In this document: piece by piece, positions 11,638 through 63,136 of the stretch | Numbering within the stretch: position 1 is the first letter of the stretch | How the letters are laid out: every line of letters begins with the position of its first letter | DNA from: Candidatus Woesearchaeota archaeon | GTDB lineage: Archaea; Nanobdellota; Nanobdellia; SCGC-AAA011-G17; PNOQ01 | Length of the DNA: 64,000 bases | NCBI GenBank assembly: GCA_964587005.1 | Contig: CAZPJW010000001.1 | Coordinates: 11,986 to 75,985 of the forward strand | Reading direction: 5' to 3' | Made by a program: the position numbers and the translations under genes | Notes under the pieces: model-generated | Database searches by the model: none | Told to the model about the DNA's origin: nothing | The model's input: the letters and a program-made list of their open reading frames with translations, nothing else

Positions 11638-11652
11638 TTTTTTTATTAAAAA
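11638..11652. terminator. Oligo-T/oligo-A tract serving as a bidirectional archaeal terminator
   Basis: aatttttttattaaaaa lies directly after the stop of the + strand gene at 11637. It also lies directly after the 3' end of the minus-strand tRNA, giving a U5 run on the minus strand. Confidence 0.4.
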
Positions 11653-11778
11653 CGCCGGGACTGGGATTTGAACCCAGATGCCCGAAGGCCCGGTTTGCTC
11701 ACAATCTGATTCGAGATTCACCGATAATACAAATCATTGTAAAATCTCCGGTGCAATACCAGATTATGCGATCCCGGC
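11653..11778 (-). tRNA. Intron-containing tRNA (126 nt), class-II-like architecture; candidate tRNA-Ser(CGA); no encoded CCA
   Basis: Reverse-complement gives acceptor GCCGGGA / UCCCGGC (7 perfect bp) and discriminator G. D arm is GCA-UAAUCUGGUAU-UGC (3-bp stem, long loop with GG). T arm is CUGGG-UUCAAAU-CCCAG. A variable-arm hairpin GCC-UUCG-GGC precedes the T stem. The gene carries about 42 nt more than a mature class-II tRNA. A candidate anticodon loop CUCGAAU sits 37-43 nt after position 26. Exon-intron boundaries were not resolved by hand. Confidence 0.6.
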
Positions 11779-12445
11779 ATACGTATTAATTTTCATTCTT
11801 TTTACGGGATGATTAAACCCAATCAACCTTGCAAACTTTATAATATTTTCTTTTTCCGAAATAACCAAAATATAATTTGTATTCCAATTCTCATTTTTCC
11901 TTACATACATATAAAGATTAGAACTCACTCCAAGAGAAGCCAACAAAAACTTTATTTCTTCAATTCCAGATTTATTTACAGATTGTACATCTATCCTATT
12001 CTTTCCAACATATCCCTCACAATCATAAAAGGCTCTAATAAATTCAATCTTACATTCTCTAGACTCAAAAATAAATTTAGGAATTTCCCAGTTCAAAGTA
12101 CCAAACGTAGAAAGCTCTTTCAAATGAGAAGCAACAACTTTAGAATTAATGTTTACACTAAAATGATTGATCTCTTCCCTAATAGTGGGTACCTTACTAT
12201 AAATTTGACTGAATGTATCAACGTAAAGTTGAGCTAGTTCCAGCACATCTGGATAAAAAGAAATTATATATCTCATAGCATTTCTACTTTTCTCCTTACC
12301 AACAATCAAGCTACCATCACCAGCTAAAAAACCACAAAGTCTAGCTAATTTAATATCATCTGCATTTATCTTACTCTTTTCAAGTTCATGAATTTTCTTC
12401 CATCTTGAAATAGCAACATTCCTATTCCTCTCACAAATATCCATA
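11764..12445 (-). CDS. Double-motif LAGLIDADG homing endonuclease family protein (free-standing; stop codon inside the tRNA)
   Basis: Two LAGLIDADG-type motifs: LARLCGFLAGDGSL and FIRAFYDCEGYVG. Start trimmed to MDICERN (ATG at 12445), which sits about 20 nt downstream of a TATATAAAC box. The track ORF extends further 5' but would overlap aglB. The last five codons plus UAA are tRNA nt 1-15 (...TYAGIA*). Confidence 0.7.
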
Positions 12446-12465
12446 ACAATTAACCTCAAATATTG

Positions 12466-12506
12466 TTTATATACACTACGCCCGTACGTGGCAAGCTGGC
12501 AACTTA
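12466..12506 (-). promoter_or_regulatory. TATA box (12466-12474) plus conserved upstream 21-bp motif (12486-12506) of the LAGLIDADG gene
   Basis: Minus strand reads AAGTTGCCAGCTTGCCACGTAC, then 11 nt, then TATATAAAC, then 20 nt, then ATG. The same arrangement and a near-identical motif (AAGTTGTCATCTTGTCACGTAC) occur at 62444-62484 upstream of the second LAGLIDADG gene. Confidence 0.45.
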
Positions 12507-12553
12507 AAAAGAGCTTCAAAACATTTATATACCTTACCGAAATCCTATTCATA

Positions 12554-15082
12554 ATGGATGAATTAGAACTAAAATATGATTCTAAAAAAGTAAAAGAGTT
12601 TACAAAGAAATACGGAACAATTCTATTAATCTTAATCCCAATTTTCTTGGCAATATTCTTCAGAGCATACCCATATTCATTACCAATAACAGACCAAACA
12701 GCAAGAGATAGTATGGAAAACAACATAAAGGCACAAATACAAAACGAAATAATCACCCAAGCCCAAGATATAGATCAAAATACTCTAAACACTTTAACAA
12801 ATCAAAGATACCAATCATATGTTTCGGAAAATAAAGAAATAATAGAAGAACAAACAAAACTCCTCTCAGATCAAATAAAACAATTCTATAAAGACGATTC
12901 CGGACAAACATACTTACTAGCAATAGATCCCTATCATTATTTAAGACAAACAGATAACATTCTAGAAAACGGACACGTTGGCGATGAACTAATAGATGGA
13001 ACGCCTCATGACAACCATATGCTAGCACCAAACGGAAGAACTATGCATAACAGCTTCCATCCATACATAACAGCACAACTTCATAAAATTTCTCAAGTAT
13101 TTGGAAATGATTCAACTCTAAAAACCATATTTATAATCCCACTAATTTTCGCAGCATTAGCAGTTATTCCAGCATTTTTCATAACTAGAAAAATAACAGG
13201 AAAACTAGGTGCAACTGTAGCAGCAGTAACAGTAGCAATCCATCAATCATTCCTCGGAAGAACGCCTGCAGGATTTGCCGATACCGATGCATACACAATC
13301 TTCTTTCCCTTAGTTATAGTTTGGCTCTTCTTAGAATCTTTCACTAGAACAAATTCAAAACAAAAATATATTTTTGGGAGTCTTGCAGGATTAGCCACAG
13401 GACTCTTCGCATTTGCTTGGGGAGGATGGTGGTATTTATTTGATATATTGGTAGCAACATTAGGAATTTACTTCATATATTTATTAATAAAATACAAAAA
13501 AAACGTATTCAAAAAAATAAAAACAAAGAATCTCATAAAAACAACAATCTCTTACTTGGCATCTTCAACTTTATTTGTAATATTATTCACAAGTGTAGCG
13601 GACTTCTTAACATTTTATAGAAGCCCAATGGGTGTAATCTTCATAAAACAAGCAGCACACTCAACCCTATGGCCAAACGTATACACCACGGTAGCAGAAT
13701 TAAACACCATAACACTACCCCAAGTAATAAACGCACTTGGAGGAAAATTATTATTCGGAATAGCAGCACTAGGCATTTTACTAGTCTTCCTAAAGAAAAA
13801 GAAACTTCAAACAGAAATAAAATATGGAATTCTACTATTAGTGTGGTTCGCAGTTACTCTCTATACTTCAACAAAAGGAGCAAGGTTTGTAATGTACGCA
13901 GTTCCAATATTCGCAATAGGCTTGGGTATATTCTATGGAAGGATATATACTCTATTAACTAATTACGGTTCAAAAGAACTTGACCTAAACAAAAAATTAC
14001 TTTCAATAAGTCTAATCGTATTAACAATTCTTTCCTTTGTACCTATGGTCAAAACTGCACATCAAACAGCATTATATGAAGTACCTTCATTTACAGATTC
14101 ATGGTACACAGCATTAACAAAAATAAAAGAAGAAACTCCAGAAAATTCAATAGTAAATTCTTGGTGGGACTTTGGACACTGGTTCAAATACTGGACAGAT
14201 CGGGCAGTAACTTTCGATGGGGCCTCACAAGACACGCCGCCAGCACATTGGATTGGAAAAACTATGTTAACTAGTAACGAAGACGAATCAATAGCAATCT
14301 TGAGAATGTTAGACTGCGGAAGTAATGATGCATATGATTTATTACTTGAAGAATCAAACGACCCATTACTAACTAAAAAAACAATAGACAAAATCATATT
14401 ACAAGAAAAAAACACAGCAAAAAACACACTATTACAATACACAGATAATCCGGACCAAATACTAGAAAAAACTCACTGTCAACCACCAGAAGACTATTTC
14501 ATAACATCTGAAGACATGGTATCAAAAGCAGGAGTATGGGCACACTTTGGATCCTGGGATTTTGAAAGAGCATACGCATATAATACAGTTAAAGAAAACA
14601 ATAAAGAAACAGCAATAGCGCAACTACAAGAAAAACTAACTTACTCACAAGAAGAAGCAGAATCAACATTCAGACAATTAAATGGGTTAACTGACCAAGA
14701 AGCAAATCAGTGGATAGCACCATATCCTTCATATTCAAACATCGGGCAATGTTACGAACAAAATACTACAATAGCCTGTTCAAATGGAATAGTAATAGAA
14801 AACAACAGAGCATATGCACAATCAGAACAAGGCGCAATAGAAATAAAACATTACAGAGATGATAAGCAAATATACACTAGTGAAGAAGGAACAGAAGAAA
14901 TAGCAGTAGCATATGTCCCAAAATACCAAACAGTGATGATAATGGACCCAGCATTACTAGGAAGCACATTTACCGAGCTTTACTTCTATGAAGGACAAAA
15001 CTTAAATAATTTCGAGTTATTCGATTTCCAACAAGGAACTGATGGTTTTAGAATCTACACTTGGAAAGTAAAATGGACATAA
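12554..15082 (+). CDS. aglB: Archaeal oligosaccharyltransferase AglB (STT3 family)
   Basis: 13 N-terminal TM helices followed by a periplasmic domain carrying the WWDYG-type motif (SWWDFGHWFKYW). Start set at MDELELKYDSKK (12554) rather than the upstream in-frame ATG at 12488. Length about 840 aa. Confidence 0.85.
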   Translation: MDELELKYDSKKVKEFTKKYGTILLILIPIFLAIFFRAYPYSLPITDQTARDSMENNIKAQIQNEIITQAQDIDQNTLNTLTNQRYQSYVSENKEIIEEQTKLLSDQIKQFYKDDSGQTYLLAIDPYHYLRQTDNILENGHVGDELIDGTPHDNHMLAPNGRTMHNSFHPYITAQLHKISQVFGNDSTLKTIFIIPLIFAALAVIPAFFITRKITGKLGATVAAVTVAIHQSFLGRTPAGFADTDAYTIFFPLVIVWLFLESFTRTNSKQKYIFGSLAGLATGLFAFAWGGWWYLFDILVATLGIYFIYLLIKYKKNVFKKIKTKNLIKTTISYLASSTLFVILFTSVADFLTFYRSPMGVIFIKQAAHSTLWPNVYTTVAELNTITLPQVINALGGKLLFGIAALGILLVFLKKKKLQTEIKYGILLLVWFAVTLYTSTKGARFVMYAVPIFAIGLGIFYGRIYTLLTNYGSKELDLNKKLLSISLIVLTILSFVPMVKTAHQTALYEVPSFTDSWYTALTKIKEETPENSIVNSWWDFGHWFKYWTDRAVTFDGASQDTPPAHWIGKTMLTSNEDESIAILRMLDCGSNDAYDLLLEESNDPLLTKKTIDKIILQEKNTAKNTLLQYTDNPDQILEKTHCQPPEDYFITSEDMVSKAGVWAHFGSWDFERAYAYNTVKENNKETAIAQLQEKLTYSQEEAESTFRQLNGLTDQEANQWIAPYPSYSNIGQCYEQNTTIACSNGIVIENNRAYAQSEQGAIEIKHYRDDKQIYTSEEGTEEIAVAYVPKYQTVMIMDPALLGSTFTELYFYEGQNLNNFELFDFQQGTDGFRIYTWKVKWT

Positions 15083-61726: not shown

Positions 61727-61854
61727 CGCCGGGACTGGGATTTGAACCCAGATGCCCTTTCGGGCCTGGCTAACCTGTGTATTATTTCAAGGCTTACACT
61801 TCAGAGAGACTAACTCAGCTGAATCAGTGCAATACCAGATTATGCGATCCCGGC
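61727..61854 (-). tRNA. Intron-containing tRNA (128 nt), paralog of 11653..11778; candidate tRNA-Ser(UGA); no encoded CCA
   Basis: First 27 nt (acceptor GCCGGGA, D arm) and last 31 nt (GGGCAU + T arm CUGGG-UUCAAAU-CCCAG + UCCCGGC + G73) are identical to the first tRNA. Variable-arm hairpin GCCC-GAAA-GGGC differs compensatorily from GCC-UUCG-GGC. Candidate anticodon loop CUUGAAA sits at the same offset (37-43 nt after position 26) as CUCGAAU in the paralog. Confidence 0.6.
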
Positions 61855-62422
61855 ATAAGTTTTGTAATACAACGCTACTTTCATCTATATTTAAATTTAA
61901 CTGATAAGAGAAATATTTATTTTTTTGTATAACATTTTTAACTTCCTTGTTAAATCCCCAAATCTCTTCAATCATATGACTCAATCCCAATAATAACTCC
62001 TTACTAGCCATATGGAAATGGAGATTTCCTCGCTTATTTAATCCTCCATCTGTTAAAAACAAACCAAGAAAAAAAGATTTCTTAATGTCCTTATTTGCTT
62101 TAAGTATCAACTCCGGAACCTTTACTATTGCAGCTTTTTTGCCGAATGGAATTCCAATATTATAAACAAGATAATCAAAGATAGGTTTGGAGTAAATACG
62201 AAATTCATAAAGTATTTTTTTATTTGGCCTATGTCTTGAGTTTATCTTACCCTTTGACCCAAATAACTCAGAGTTAAGGTTTGAGAATAAATCTACATAT
62301 TCCCTCCGGGTATTCCAAAAAGCAATTGAATAAGTAGGATATCCAAAACCATTTTTTCTGTTTGATATAGAACCATCTCCAACAAGCATACCTAAAAATA
62401 AAGCCAGTTTATTCAAATCCAT
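61787..62422 (-). CDS. Double-motif LAGLIDADG homing endonuclease family protein; C-terminal 22 codons read through the tRNA
   Basis: Motifs LALFLGMLVGDGSI and FFLGLFLTDGGL. ATG at 62422 is 21 nt downstream of TTTATAAAC. The ORF terminates at a UGA formed by tRNA nt 66-68, in a different frame from the first cassette. Confidence 0.65.
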   Translation of the reverse strand: MDLNKLALFLGMLVGDGSISNRKNGFGYPTYSIAFWNTRREYVDLFSNLNSELFGSKGKINSRHRPNKKILYEFRIYSKPIFDYLVYNIGIPFGKKAAIVKVPELILKANKDIKKSFFLGLFLTDGGLNKRGNLHFHMASKELLLGLSHMIEEIWGFNKEVKNVIQKNKYFSYQLNLNIDESSVVLQNLCRDRIIWYCTDSAELVSLKCKP

Positions 62423-62443
62423 ATAAGAAAAAAACTAGAAATA

Positions 62444-62484
62444 GTTTATAAATTATTTCTCTGTACGTGACAAGATGACAACTT
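62444..62484 (-). promoter_or_regulatory. TATA box (62444-62452) plus conserved upstream 22-bp motif (62463-62484), copy 2
   Basis: Minus strand reads AAGTTGTCATCTTGTCACGTAC, then 10 nt, then TTTATAAAC, then 21 nt, then ATG. Same spacing as at 12466-12506. Contains a direct hexamer repeat TTGTCA-TC-TTGTCA (TTGCCA-GC-TTGCCA in copy 1). Confidence 0.45.
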
Positions 62485-63136
62485 ACAAAACGCCCATAAT
62501 GTGATATGTCAAAGCAGTTCCAATTTTTATAGGATTATCTCCACTTTCAAATTCGGCAACAACACAATAATCATTCCCCTTATAAATTTGATTTGCACTT
62601 CCTTCTTTAAACCAAATAACAAACCTATTCTCATTAGCATTATTACATGTAAGAACAGGTAACTTTAATTCTCTAGTCCGTTCATTATCCTCAATAGAAG
62701 CCAATAAAGTAGGTATATTAAACGGAGCAGGTTCCAACATCTTCTGTCCAACAACCCTTTCAACAGTTAAAAGAGCAACAATCATTTTATTTTCATTTTC
62801 CAAGTCCAAATAAACATCCCTTGTAATATAAATGCTCTTAGCATTCTGAATATCATATCTAACCTTCTCAATAGGAATATCTTCCAACTCTTCAGGACCA
62901 TATTCAAAAGGAATTAAATATTTCTGCCAAAAATACCCAAATAATTTTTCATATTGCAAAATATGTACTTCATTCCCAGTGTGTTTGTCTAAAATAAAAT
63001 CAAAATCTGCAGTGACTCCTCCATAAATATATTCTGAATTTGTTCTGGAGTATATAGTATAGGTAACAGCAAAAGCAACAATAAATACAAGAACTATAAG
63101 GACTGCTGCTATAGATTTTTCTTGTTTTTTATCCAT
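62483..63136 (-). CDS. Small N-terminally anchored secreted protein (paralog pair, member 1)
   Basis: 217 aa. K/E-rich N-terminus then TM (IAAVLIVLVFIVAFAVTYTIY). C-terminus ...ALTYHIMGVL resembles the neighbour's ...GLFYKILGVI. Confidence 0.45.
   Translation of the reverse strand: MDKKQEKSIAAVLIVLVFIVAFAVTYTIYSRTNSEYIYGGVTADFDFILDKHTGNEVHILQYEKLFGYFWQKYLIPFEYGPEELEDIPIEKVRYDIQNAKSIYITRDVYLDLENENKMIVALLTVERVVGQKMLEPAPFNIPTLLASIEDNERTRELKLPVLTCNNANENRFVIWFKEGSANQIYKGNDYCVVAEFESGDNPIKIGTALTYHIMGVL

Follow-up and report, generated by a model that had tools for sequence, protein, structure and literature searches.

A free-standing LAGLIDADG endonuclease gene that ends inside a tRNA-Ser gene in a DPANN archaeon

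How does an endonuclease gene come to end inside a tRNA gene that it does not interrupt? The question is raised by a 64,000-nucleotide stretch of a Candidatus Woesearchaeota contig (CAZPJW010000001.1; referred to here as the window), in which the first-pass annotation, made from the sequence alone, had placed a double-motif LAGLIDADG gene directly before a tRNA gene on the same strand. The described anatomy proved to be real: the endonuclease gene is free-standing and has its own TATA box, and the tRNA is uninterrupted by it. No description of this endonuclease-tRNA-Ser arrangement was found in the literature searched. The features of the locus, referred to as copy 1, are the following.

11648..11652, minus strand: T5 run directly after tRNA-Ser(CGA), resembling an archaeal terminator
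11653..11778, minus strand: tRNA-Ser(CGA) gene, 126 nt (exons 11778-11748, 11716-11710, and 11695-11653; mature tRNA, 81 nt)
11696..11709, minus strand: bulge-helix-bulge (BHB) intron 2, 14 nt, canonical position 37/38, CUCG[AA/U]...UGAG[CA/A]
11717..11747, minus strand: BHB intron 1, 31 nt, position 30/31, CACC[GG/A]...GGUG[AA/U] (central helix 4/4, inner helix 3 bp)
11764..12444, minus strand: LAGLIDADG homing-endonuclease gene ORF1, 226 amino acids (from translation, Pfam, and a structure model)
11781..12500, minus strand: 720-bp inserted element (left-end motif, own promoter, and stop-less LAGLIDADG ORF), absent from a related locus (L107)
12465..12474, minus strand: the element's own TATA box, GTATATAAAC (TATATAAAC box)
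12479..12500, minus strand: conserved left-end motif GCCAGCTTGCCACGTACGGGCG, tandem TTGNCA-N2-TTGNCA, 22 nt
12522..12533, minus strand: native tRNA-Ser(CGA) TATA box GGTATATAAATG, identical in L107

Anatomy of the two endonuclease-tRNA units

ORF1 is an I-DmoI-like double-motif LAGLIDADG endonuclease. Its motifs read LAGDGS (D43) and FYDCEGYV (E143), and both acidic residues were invariant among 23 homologs with 35 to 63% identity, a range over which the ORFs were intact. The protein matched LAGLIDADG_3 (PF14528) at 4e-19, above the cut-off, and a sequence search of the PDB gave PI-PfuI (2e-12), followed by I-DmoI, as the nearest solved structures. The same two structures were the best Foldseek matches in the PDB (E = 4e-13 for PI-PfuI) to an AlphaFold model with a pLDDT of 94 and a pTM of 0.90, and the model superposed on I-DmoI with TM scores of 0.72 to 0.82, normalised by the I-DmoI chain. 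The modelled fold is the tandem alpha-beta-beta-alpha-beta-beta-alpha of LAGLIDADG enzymes, and the fold homology claimed at the outset holds. ORF1 is predicted to cleave DNA site specifically, the candidate targets being the insertion junction 3 nt before the tRNA and the intronless anticodon arm. It is not an intron-encoded enzyme: tRNA +1 comes 666 nt after the start of the ORF, and neither intron (31 and 14 nt) holds an ORF. A group I intron with an endonuclease gene was rejected, since no Rfam family of any kind reached its gathering score anywhere in the window, and local E-value searches of the tRNA regions and ORF 3' ends gave no intron-family match.

The tRNA genes were difficult to call. 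Default ARAGORN and Rfam searches of the whole window at gathering thresholds missed both the gene at 11653..11778 and that of a second unit (copy 2, below), whereas RF00005 matched the unspliced copy 1 tRNA at 39.2 bits (gathering score, 29) when that region was searched alone, and ARAGORN in intron mode found both genes but typed them wrongly as Lys(ttt) and Cys(aca). The enumeration of BHB-like intron pairs combined with ARAGORN was too permissive, with dozens of "tRNAs" called, and the splice sites were fixed from intronless orthologs. By this comparison, the "extra sequence" that the first-pass annotation had seen in the 126-nt gene consists of two BHB introns. Their removal in silico gave an 81-nt tRNA-Ser(CGA) equal to the intronless genes of L107 and L102, and the spliced copy 2 tRNA equals the intronless genes of L086 and L100. 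On the spliced sequences, ARAGORN called Ser(cga) (81 nt) and Ser(tga) (83 nt), and both tRNAs have a serine anticodon, a long variable arm (hairpins closed by UUCG and GAAA, respectively), a 3-bp D stem, and a G73 discriminator. All four introns have a 4/4 central helix, with relaxed outer and inner helices of 0 to 5 bp, and the copy 1 D arm is complementary to intron 2 and adjoining exon 2 bases (about 11709-11697). Because the double introns defeat default ARAGORN and whole-window Rfam, tRNA-Ser would be scored as absent in such genomes.

The borders of the copy 1 element were given by L107, the flanks of which align up to 12501 and again from 11781. The element has a GC content of 31%, its edges are ambiguous by 1 to 3 nt (GTT/GT), and it is inserted at the tRNA-Ser(CGA) transcription start, 3 nt before tRNA +1. 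The native TATA box is common to the tRNA and the divergent STT3/AglB gene (ATG at 12554, plus strand) and lies at a distance of 22 to 23 nt from the STT3 ATG and likewise from the insertion junction; in L107 it stands 23 nt plus "AT" upstream of tRNA +1. The ATG of ORF1 comes 21 nt after the end of the TATA box that belongs to the element; the spacing is the same in copy 2 and is what would be expected of a leaderless mRNA. The sequence at the head of the element, which had been taken for a promoter motif, was reassigned as its left end. A shared 20-nt upstream motif had two sites in the window, both at the elements, compared with 0.02 expected by chance; the mismatch-free tandem TTGNCA likewise occurred only at the two elements, while total matches were at the level of chance, and a general promoter element was rejected on these counts. 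The same motif heads the elements in L001, L003, L111, L132, and L133. Its pairing with the right end or the tRNA gave duplex energies no better than those of shuffled sequences (seven elements; z scores of -0.65 to +1.66), and on these energies the idea was rejected that the motif forms a processing stem or a BHB through which the mRNA would be cut out or made circular.

ORF1 has no stop codon of its own. Its final codons, GCC GGG ATC GCA TAA, are tRNA nucleotides 1 to 15, with the frame closing at the UAA in the D-loop, and the tRNA is followed by the T5 run, both as the first-pass annotation had stated. It had also reported that the whole unit recurs at 61727-62490, and a second unit was indeed found there.

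61727..61854, minus strand: tRNA-Ser(UGA) gene, copy 2, 128 nt (exons 61854-61825, 61793-61786, and 61771-61727)
61772..61785, minus strand: copy 2 intron, 14 nt, position 37/38
61794..61824, minus strand: copy 2 intron, 31 nt, position 29/30
61787..62422, minus strand: LAGLIDADG gene ORF2, copy 2, 211 amino acids (motifs LVGDGS and LTDGG)
62444..62452, minus strand: copy 2 element TATA box TTTATAAAC
62459..62482, minus strand: copy 2 left-end motif GTTGTCATCTTGTCACGTACAGAG, beginning right after the upstream gene's stop codon

This unit (62482-61727) lies before tRNA-Ser(UGA), which its ORF enters in another frame than that of copy 1, and the overlap described for copy 1 does not extend to it: ORF2 runs 68 nt into the tRNA and stops at a TGA (61789-61787) that is the tRNA anticodon. 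Both proteins have two motifs, each ending in a catalytic acidic residue, as in monomeric double-motif enzymes, and D125 of ORF2 was invariant among its homologs; in Pfam, ORF2 had a weak WhiA-type LAGLIDADG match (E = 0.006, below the cut-off). The two proteins share about 35% identity over 62 amino acids only, and the anticodons and overlap frames differ. The two units therefore are not duplicates; copy 2 is a distant family member at the equivalent place of another tRNA-Ser isoacceptor.

The insertion changes the transcription context of the tRNA. The native tRNA promoter lies 720 bp upstream of the tRNA in copy 1 and is missing in copy 2, which favours read-through transcription, and the endonuclease gene and the tRNA would then be co-transcribed. 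The last 60 nt upstream of the copy 1 tRNA contain no TATA-like 8-mer. In copy 2, a perfect TTTAAATA stands 41 nt upstream of the tRNA, which by sequence may have an internal promoter of its own. Sense-strand runs of five or more T residues, four in the copy 1 element and five in copy 2, could attenuate read-through, but some host ORFs have more.

Empty and occupied alleles in related genomes

The related genome with L107 is syntenic with the window over 5 kb at 88% nucleotide identity, and its STT3 protein is 90% identical. At the empty site of L107, the TATA box is shared with the window and the 60 nt of left flank are identical; the tRNA follows directly, with neither the endonuclease gene nor introns. 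The copy 1 site was empty, and intron 1 was missing, in L107, L102, L098, and L092, and the site was occupied in the window, L001, and L003. The copy 2 site was empty in L086, L100, and L079 and occupied in the window, L111 (the ortholog), L132, and L133. One contig had both sites empty (L098 and L100), while both are occupied in the window. One further allele, L089, is a two-intron UGA allele, and its locus sequence reaches 48 nt upstream of the tRNA 5' end, inside the ORF overlap. Occupied and empty alleles of the same conserved site are found in related genomes, as is characteristic of a homing element. The empty allele of L107 and the independent presence and absence at both loci support the mobility of the module, in agreement with the behaviour proposed by the first-pass annotation.

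The copy 1 flank beside the junction is identical at 97 of 100 nt, compared with about 82% elsewhere, and the shared bidirectional promoter explains this equally as well as a conversion tract. Endonuclease identity to the window's protein was 63% in L001 and 56% in L003, and STT3 identity was 63% and 50%, respectively; the endonuclease has diverged in step with its host, and vertical descent over long periods, with the gene lost now and then, accounts for the data no less well than active homing does. The left junction has no homology to other loci, and movement between different tRNA-Ser loci needs further explanation.

Linkage with tRNA-Ser across DPANN archaea

LAGLIDADG ORFs preceding tRNA-Ser genes, which the first-pass annotation had suggested looking for elsewhere, were found in several DPANN phyla. 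Of 42 related DPANN loci with an intact ORF, 41 have a tRNA on the same strand that either overlaps the ORF or begins within 51 nt of its end. With ARAGORN, 24 of these tRNAs were called as tRNA-Ser, and the intron-bearing ones were mis-typed; the tRNA was tRNA-Ser wherever it could be typed. Such linkage was absent from all 18 loci at which the LAGLIDADG relatives are exclusively remote ones, with 25 to 32% identity (L057-L075 without L061). Family-2 homologs have C-terminal tails that are translated from tRNA sequence, while some relatives have their own stop codon 1 to 51 nt before the tRNA, and the ORF-tRNA overlap therefore is not essential to the family. Some relatives are frameshifted (L050, L052, L054, and L061). 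No near-identical copy turned up in another genomic setting, the nearest relatives being 73% and 88% identical. A viral origin of the family was rejected, as viral contigs hold only generic LAGLIDADG genes with 22 to 28% identity and one match of 47% over a 56-residue stretch.

Introns accompany the gene in the window's clade, where at least one anticodon-arm intron was present in 8 of 8 occupied alleles versus 9 of 21 empty ones (Fisher p = 0.009, with counts that are not phylogenetically independent). At about 15 more distant occupied loci, the tRNA-Ser is intronless, and immunity based on introns therefore cannot be general.

Proposed homing at tRNA-Ser genes and its significance

We consider it probable that these genes form a free-standing, DPANN-wide homing-endonuclease lineage specialised on tRNA-Ser genes, the unit in the window being a selfish element at the tRNA-Ser start. 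The enzyme would cut tRNA-Ser alleles lacking the gene, and the broken allele would acquire the gene, along with the adjacent anticodon-arm introns, through double-strand-break repair, by intronless or collaborative homing; the occupied allele would escape cutting with its recognition site split by the insertion, by the introns, or by both. More tentatively, the lineage could recognise the intronless tRNA-Ser anticodon arm, with the BHB introns (at 29/30, 30/31, and 37/38) acting as immunity and being co-converted with the gene. Collaborative homing of this kind, in which the target is the intron site and the intron confers immunity, would fit the association of introns with occupancy in the window's clade, but the distant intronless loci contradict it as a general rule. 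The copy 1 tRNA would most simply be made by read-through from the native and element promoters across the endonuclease gene, be freed by 5' cleavage (RNase P) and 3' cleavage, and be spliced twice by the tRNA-splicing endonuclease. Since the stop codon lies inside the tRNA and is freed with it by 5' cleavage, one transcript would give a stop-bearing mRNA or a mature tRNA but not both. The first-pass annotation had the geometry of this arrangement right, and a coupling of RNase P cleavage to loss of the stop codon may follow from it.

A possible but doubtful alternative is that the mobile unit is the endonuclease gene together with its own cleavage-resistant tRNA-Ser, which would land in a resident tRNA-Ser, destroy it, and replace it, with the tRNA serving as cargo and antidote instead of being a target that the gene had only approached from its upstream side. 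An nhmmer profile (BLAST was insensitive here) found a tRNA-Ser 5' fragment just before the endonuclease TATA box in 6 of 45 upstream regions and in none of the control segments. In L011, L009, and L036, the acceptor strand of the fragment is a perfect complement of a tRNA 3' half located after the complete inner tRNA-Ser, and in L015 the D arm of the inner tRNA differs from that of the fragment. The two introns that distinguish the window's tRNAs from the empty alleles possibly arrived with the gene as well. However, the window's exons are 100% identical to the empty allele, the left junction lies upstream of tRNA +1, and neither a recognisable tRNA 5' fragment nor an outer 3' half was found at the two copy sites, where the left-end motif could at most be such a fragment in an advanced state of decay.

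The similar divergences of endonuclease and host, the frameshifted relatives, and the lack of near-identical copies elsewhere are also what a stranded relic would leave, one no longer mobile or active and inherited vertically since precise loss is rare, with an overlap of no regulatory meaning. We regard this as unlikely: the catalytic residues are invariant in ORFs that are intact over 35 to 63% identity, presence and absence differ between genomes with 90% identical STT3 proteins, and the empty state, if it arose by loss, would have required the gene and each of the two introns to be removed precisely, in three separate deletions. Very improbable, in our judgement, is a domesticated protein, a maturase-like or WhiA-like regulator of tRNA-Ser expression or maturation. 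Such a role would explain the strict linkage with tRNA-Ser over several DPANN phyla, and the conserved left-end motif upstream of the gene's promoter and the weak WhiA-type match of ORF2 are in its favour; yet close relatives manage without the gene, their empty sites encoding the same mature tRNAs, and the catalytic residues, being retained, speak for an enzyme that cuts DNA. The empty alleles and the occupied loci with intronless tRNAs argue against the maturase reading in particular, and splicing of BHB introns is carried out by the tRNA-splicing endonuclease, with no maturase required.

Several known systems share parts of the arrangement. I-DmoI, archaeal intron-encoded LAGLIDADG enzymes, and the PI-PfuI intein domain have the same monomeric double-motif fold with the D/E pair and are also found in Archaea, but enzymes of the I-DmoI and PI-PfuI type lie inside rRNA BHB introns or inteins, whereas the gene in the window is free-standing in a tRNA 5' leader, with its own promoter and no stop codon of its own. 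Fungal mitogenomes contain free-standing LAGLIDADG ORFs. Mitochondria also have tRNA punctuation, in which, as in the window, an mRNA abuts or overlaps a tRNA on one transcript and excision of the tRNA sets or destroys the mRNA 3' end; that system is organellar, and its incomplete stop codons are repaired by polyadenylation, which to our knowledge is not known for archaea.

Closer in behaviour is SegB of phage T4, a free-standing GIY-YIG endonuclease in the T4 tRNA gene cluster that undergoes intronless homing (PMC2330249). It resembles the window's gene in lying beside or among tRNA genes and in spreading with the flanking tRNA region, but it is a phage GIY-YIG enzyme whose gene neither overlaps a tRNA nor is accompanied by introns, and it is not confined to a single amino acid family. 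In collaborative (trans) homing, described for F-CphI/psbA and phage PhiI, a free-standing endonuclease beside an ORF-less intron has its target at the intron insertion site (PMC3984707; PMC6083498). A free-standing gene upstream of intron-bearing occupied alleles, with intronless empty alleles, matches this pattern, although the introns in the window are protein-spliced BHB introns in a tRNA rather than group I introns and the association fails in distant relatives. At a tRNA-Thr locus of Caldiarchaeum subterraneum, a 5' tRNA fragment is followed by a 1.8-kb mobile element and then a two-intron tRNA (PMC3293823). L011, L015, L028, and L035 likewise have a tRNA 5' fragment upstream of the inserted element, and the loci further agree in the heterogeneity of the population at the tRNA locus and in the gain of introns by the allele on the element side. 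The C. subterraneum element has a recombinase gene and resembles an integrating plasmid, whereas the sole gene here is the LAGLIDADG endonuclease.

How archaeal tRNA genes gain introns and become fragmented and split is a long-standing question, for which intron transposition or integrating plasmids have been proposed (PMC3293823; Fujishima 2010, as cited in PMC10714607). In the present case, one tRNA family has a homing-endonuclease gene tied to it physically and evolutionarily, and among genomes that are otherwise close relatives the occupied alleles bear introns and the empty ones are intron free. The arrangement also may be a natural case of a transcript that can become either a mature tRNA or an mRNA with its stop codon intact. 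If the enzyme does target the anticodon arm and the introns do confer immunity, the system would be an archaeal counterpart of collaborative homing and a DNA-level route for the gain and spread of protein-spliced tRNA introns, and it would explain tRNA fragments and nested or split tRNA genes such as those in L011, L009, and L036.

The inserted endonuclease gene and its empty site

A scan of metagenome contigs with the shared 3' end of the tRNA yielded 39 loci. One of them, L107, corresponds to the window's locus on the chromosome of a related organism, with 5.1 kb aligned to the window at 88% nucleotide identity and a neighboring STT3/AglB gene whose protein is 90% identical. To the left of the junction, 60 nt match without a difference, and the TATA box GGTATATAAATG at window positions 12533-12522 is among them. 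In L107, this flank continues directly into AT-GCCGGG... and an intronless tRNA without an endonuclease gene; therefore, the window has a 720-bp insertion (boundaries ambiguous by 1 to 3 nt), which starts with GCCAGCTTGCCACGTACGGGCG and ends with ...AATACGT, 3 nt before tRNA +1. The L107 alignment makes GCCAGCTTGCCACGTACGGGCG, which the first-pass annotation took for a promoter motif, the left end of the insertion. Other empty, intronless alleles of this locus are L102, L098, and L092, while the occupied alleles L001 and L003 (endonuclease gene before the tRNA) share this motif and both introns with the window. The earlier proposal of a mobile module agrees with these occupied and empty alleles at one conserved site.

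Features at the two loci (window coordinates)
12500-11781, minus strand: inserted element of copy 1, 720 bp, absent from L107
12444-11764, minus strand: ORF1, 226 aa, Pfam LAGLIDADG_3 (4e-19)
11747-11717, minus strand: copy 1 intron 1, 31 nt, position 30/31, CACC[GG|A]...GGUG[AA|U]
11709-11696, minus strand: copy 1 intron 2, 14 nt, canonical position 37/38, CUCG[AA|U]...UGAG[CA|A]
62422-61787, minus strand: ORF2, 211 aa, LAGLIDADG protein
61854-61727, minus strand: copy 2 tRNA, introns of 31 nt at 29/30 and 14 nt at 37/38

The native TATA core lies 22 to 23 nt from the junction and, on its other side, 22 to 23 nt from the STT3 ATG at 12554, from which we infer that the copy 1 element inserted at the transcription start of the tRNA. 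The element's own TATA (12474-12465) is 21 nt from the endonuclease ATG, a spacing that suggests a leaderless mRNA from this promoter. A single quasi-symmetric TATA (core 12531-12524) is thus equally spaced from the STT3/AglB (+) and tRNA (-) sides, and 12501-12554 looks like a 53-nt bidirectional promoter; of the 100 nt adjacent to the junction, 97 are identical in L107. A mechanical STT3/AglB ORF call starts at GTG 12488, within the inserted element (12488-12553, + strand), and alignment with L107 places the true start at ATG 12554 (MDELELKY...).

Its motifs, catalytic residues, fold, and occupied and empty alleles place the ORF1 protein among the LAGLIDADG homing endonucleases, with a predicted cleavage activity. 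Its catalytic acidic residues, D43 (LAGDGS) and E143 (FYDCEG), are invariant across 23 homologs with 35 to 63% identity. Among solved structures, the PI-PfuI intein endonuclease (2e-12) and I-DmoI are nearest by sequence, and both were also the top structural matches of the AlphaFold model (23 homologs as input; pLDDT, 94; pTM, 0.90), with TM scores of 0.72 to 0.82 on the I-DmoI chain. The Pfam match, fold, and D43/E143 thus bear out, on the minus strand of 11653-12510, the double-motif ORF first described there. ORF1 is not intron encoded, and the Rfam scans showed no group I intron around it.

The tRNA-Ser genes and their expression

The 3' end of ORF1, GCC GGG ATC GCA TAA, is nucleotides 1 to 15 of the tRNA gene at 11778-11653, so that the endonuclease gene terminates inside the tRNA, as first proposed, and the oligo-U run noted after the tRNA is present as a T5 run directly 3' of it. 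Default ARAGORN and a whole-window Rfam scan missed this tRNA; searched by itself, the region scored 39.2 bits with RF00005 (gathering score, 29), confirming the call. The gene has a standard acceptor arm, D arm, and T arm but a nonstandard central 72 nt. Introns were called by a bulge-helix-bulge motif search guided by the intronless tRNA-Ser(CGA) beside the homolog L004. Their removal in silico generated an 81-nt tRNA-Ser(CGA) from copy 1 and an 83-nt tRNA-Ser(UGA) from copy 2, and the splice sites were accepted because the products are letter-for-letter identical to intronless genes on metagenomic contigs (L107 and L102 for CGA; L086 and L100 for UGA). The 126-nt gene of the first-pass annotation is therefore real, and the intronless orthologs identify its extra sequence as two such introns.

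Together with adjoining exon 2 bases, the 37/38 intron is complementary to the D arm over 9 to 12 bp (11769-11759 with about 11709-11697), as also at 61854-61727, L001, and L003, with compensatory changes between loci (AAUCUG:CAGAUU, AACCUG:CAGGUU, and AAUUCG:CGAAUU). The predicted precursor fold is a rod that would sequester the D arm, including the UAA of the ORF, until splicing; the pairing is absent in the single-intron allele L111.

The 60 nt preceding the copy 1 tRNA lack any TATA-like 8-mer, and the native promoter of this tRNA is now 720 bp away; thus, read-through transcription is the simplest reading of this arrangement. As geometry, it holds that cleavage at tRNA +1 would strip the UAA from the mRNA, from which a designed coupling of tRNA maturation and endonuclease expression had been proposed. 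Three things speak against such coupling: some relatives have their own stop codon before the tRNA, the tRNA-encoded tails range from a few to about 30 residues among homologs, and the elements contain 4 to 5 oligo-T runs that may attenuate read-through. On the sense strand, there are four T5+ runs in 12500-11779 and five in 62482-61855, a density of about 6 to 8 per kb (6.3 per kb within ORF2). The median for the window's 49 long ORFs is 1.05 per kb, with as many as 11 per kb in a few host ORFs. TTTAAATA lies 41 nt upstream of the copy 2 tRNA, which may have an internal promoter.

The second unit and a candidate target

A related unit is indeed present 50 kb away, but it is not a duplicate of copy 1 as had been claimed: ORF2 is about 35% identical to ORF1 over 62 aa, and it extends 68 nt into a different tRNA, tRNA-Ser(UGA), in a different frame. 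Its TGA stop (61789-61787) is the anticodon triplet of that tRNA, and 6 of 13 aligned family-2 homologs end as ORF2 does (...KCKP*). The left end carries the same motif as copy 1 (20/23 nt identical), which here abuts the upstream gene's stop codon, and the approximately 41-nt promoter region of the empty alleles L086, L100, and L079 is missing. Occupied orthologs are L111, L132, and L133. Both sites are empty on one contig (L098 and L100) and both are occupied in the window; occupancy of the two loci varies independently.

All eight occupied alleles of the window's clade (the window twice, L001, L003, L111, L132, L133, and L110) have at least one anticodon-arm intron, compared with 9 of the 21 empty alleles having enough upstream sequence (Fisher p = 0.009, for alleles that are not phylogenetically independent). 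Exons are identical between occupied and empty alleles, and occupied and cleavable sites can therefore differ only at the -3 junction or the two intron sites. The first 27 nt and the last 35 nt or so are identical in all four tRNA-Ser isoacceptors of this clade (CGA, UGA, GGA, and GCU; L107, L086, L085, and L081), which suggests concerted evolution or gene conversion among these genes. If an occupied locus coexists with empty intronless isoacceptor genes, the target must include isoacceptor-specific sequence, for which the anticodon and variable arms are candidates, or a locus-specific leader. Such coexistence is likely, as one metagenome yielded both L107 and L111, which have similar identity to the window. 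On these grounds, we favor the anticodon arm as the candidate target, with introns as putative immunity. This rule is not general, since tRNA-Ser genes without introns occur at about 15 occupied loci that are more distant.

A family linked to tRNA-Ser and its movement between loci

ORF1 homologs came from Woese-, Nano-, Micr-, and Iainarchaeota genomes; viral contigs held remote relatives only. Of 42 loci with an intact ORF, 41 have a same-strand tRNA that overlaps the ORF or begins no more than 51 nt beyond its end (by ARAGORN, an overlap of 10 to 75 nt in 22 loci and a start 1 to 51 nt downstream in 16, plus three multi-intron genes recognized by eye); the remaining locus is cut off by a contig edge. 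Among the 41 tRNAs, 24 were typed by ARAGORN as Ser, with anticodon CGA or GGA; the other ARAGORN calls fall on intron-bearing genes with the anticodon misassigned, as in the window, and several of these read GGA or CGA by eye. The arrangement was found at none of 18 loci with only remote LAGLIDADG relatives (25 to 32% identity; L057 to L075 without L061). The homologs' C-terminal tails AGIA, AGVPERLMG..., and CRDRIIWYCT... (family 2) are translated tRNA 5' ends.

L110 has a third LAGLIDADG gene before tRNA-Ser(GGA), with a left end of similar architecture and different sequence (tandem CATCCGACA/CATCCGCCA, followed by TACCCCCG and next by a TATA box). GGA-type genes (L035, L019, L091/L106, and L110) carry a second GCCGGG 13 to 17 nt upstream of the tRNA's own GCCGGGA, and the L019 gene seems to contain four introns, one of them in the T loop. 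On two unrelated contigs, the unit is followed directly by PemK/MazE-type toxin-antitoxin genes (L005, 2359-2894; L132, 2153-2500).

With a tRNA-Ser 5'-end profile, a tRNA 5' fragment was detected in 6 of 45 upstream regions, each time directly before the endonuclease promoter, but in no control segments. At L011, L009, and L036 (= L005), the acceptor strand of this fragment is perfectly complementary to a tRNA 3' half downstream of the complete inner tRNA-Ser, so that promoter, endonuclease gene, and tRNA-Ser sit within another, disrupted tRNA gene. The outer 3' part opens with a hairpin in L011 and L036, with the loop TATAACT in both. Homing into any tRNA-Ser gene could use such a fragment as its left homology arm, and the motif at the left end in the window might be a decayed form of one.

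A Caldiarchaeum tRNA-Thr locus has a similar order of fragment, mobile element, and two-intron tRNA, although its element encodes a recombinase (PMC3293823). Closest in mechanism to copy 1 are the free-standing phage endonuclease SegB in the T4 tRNA cluster (PMC2330249) and collaborative homing (PMC3984707, PMC6083498). In full-text literature searches, no account of archaeal LAGLIDADG genes with a linkage to tRNA genes was found. The linkage of endonuclease and tRNA-Ser genes suggests a testable way in which archaeal tRNA introns and fragmented tRNA genes could arise and spread.
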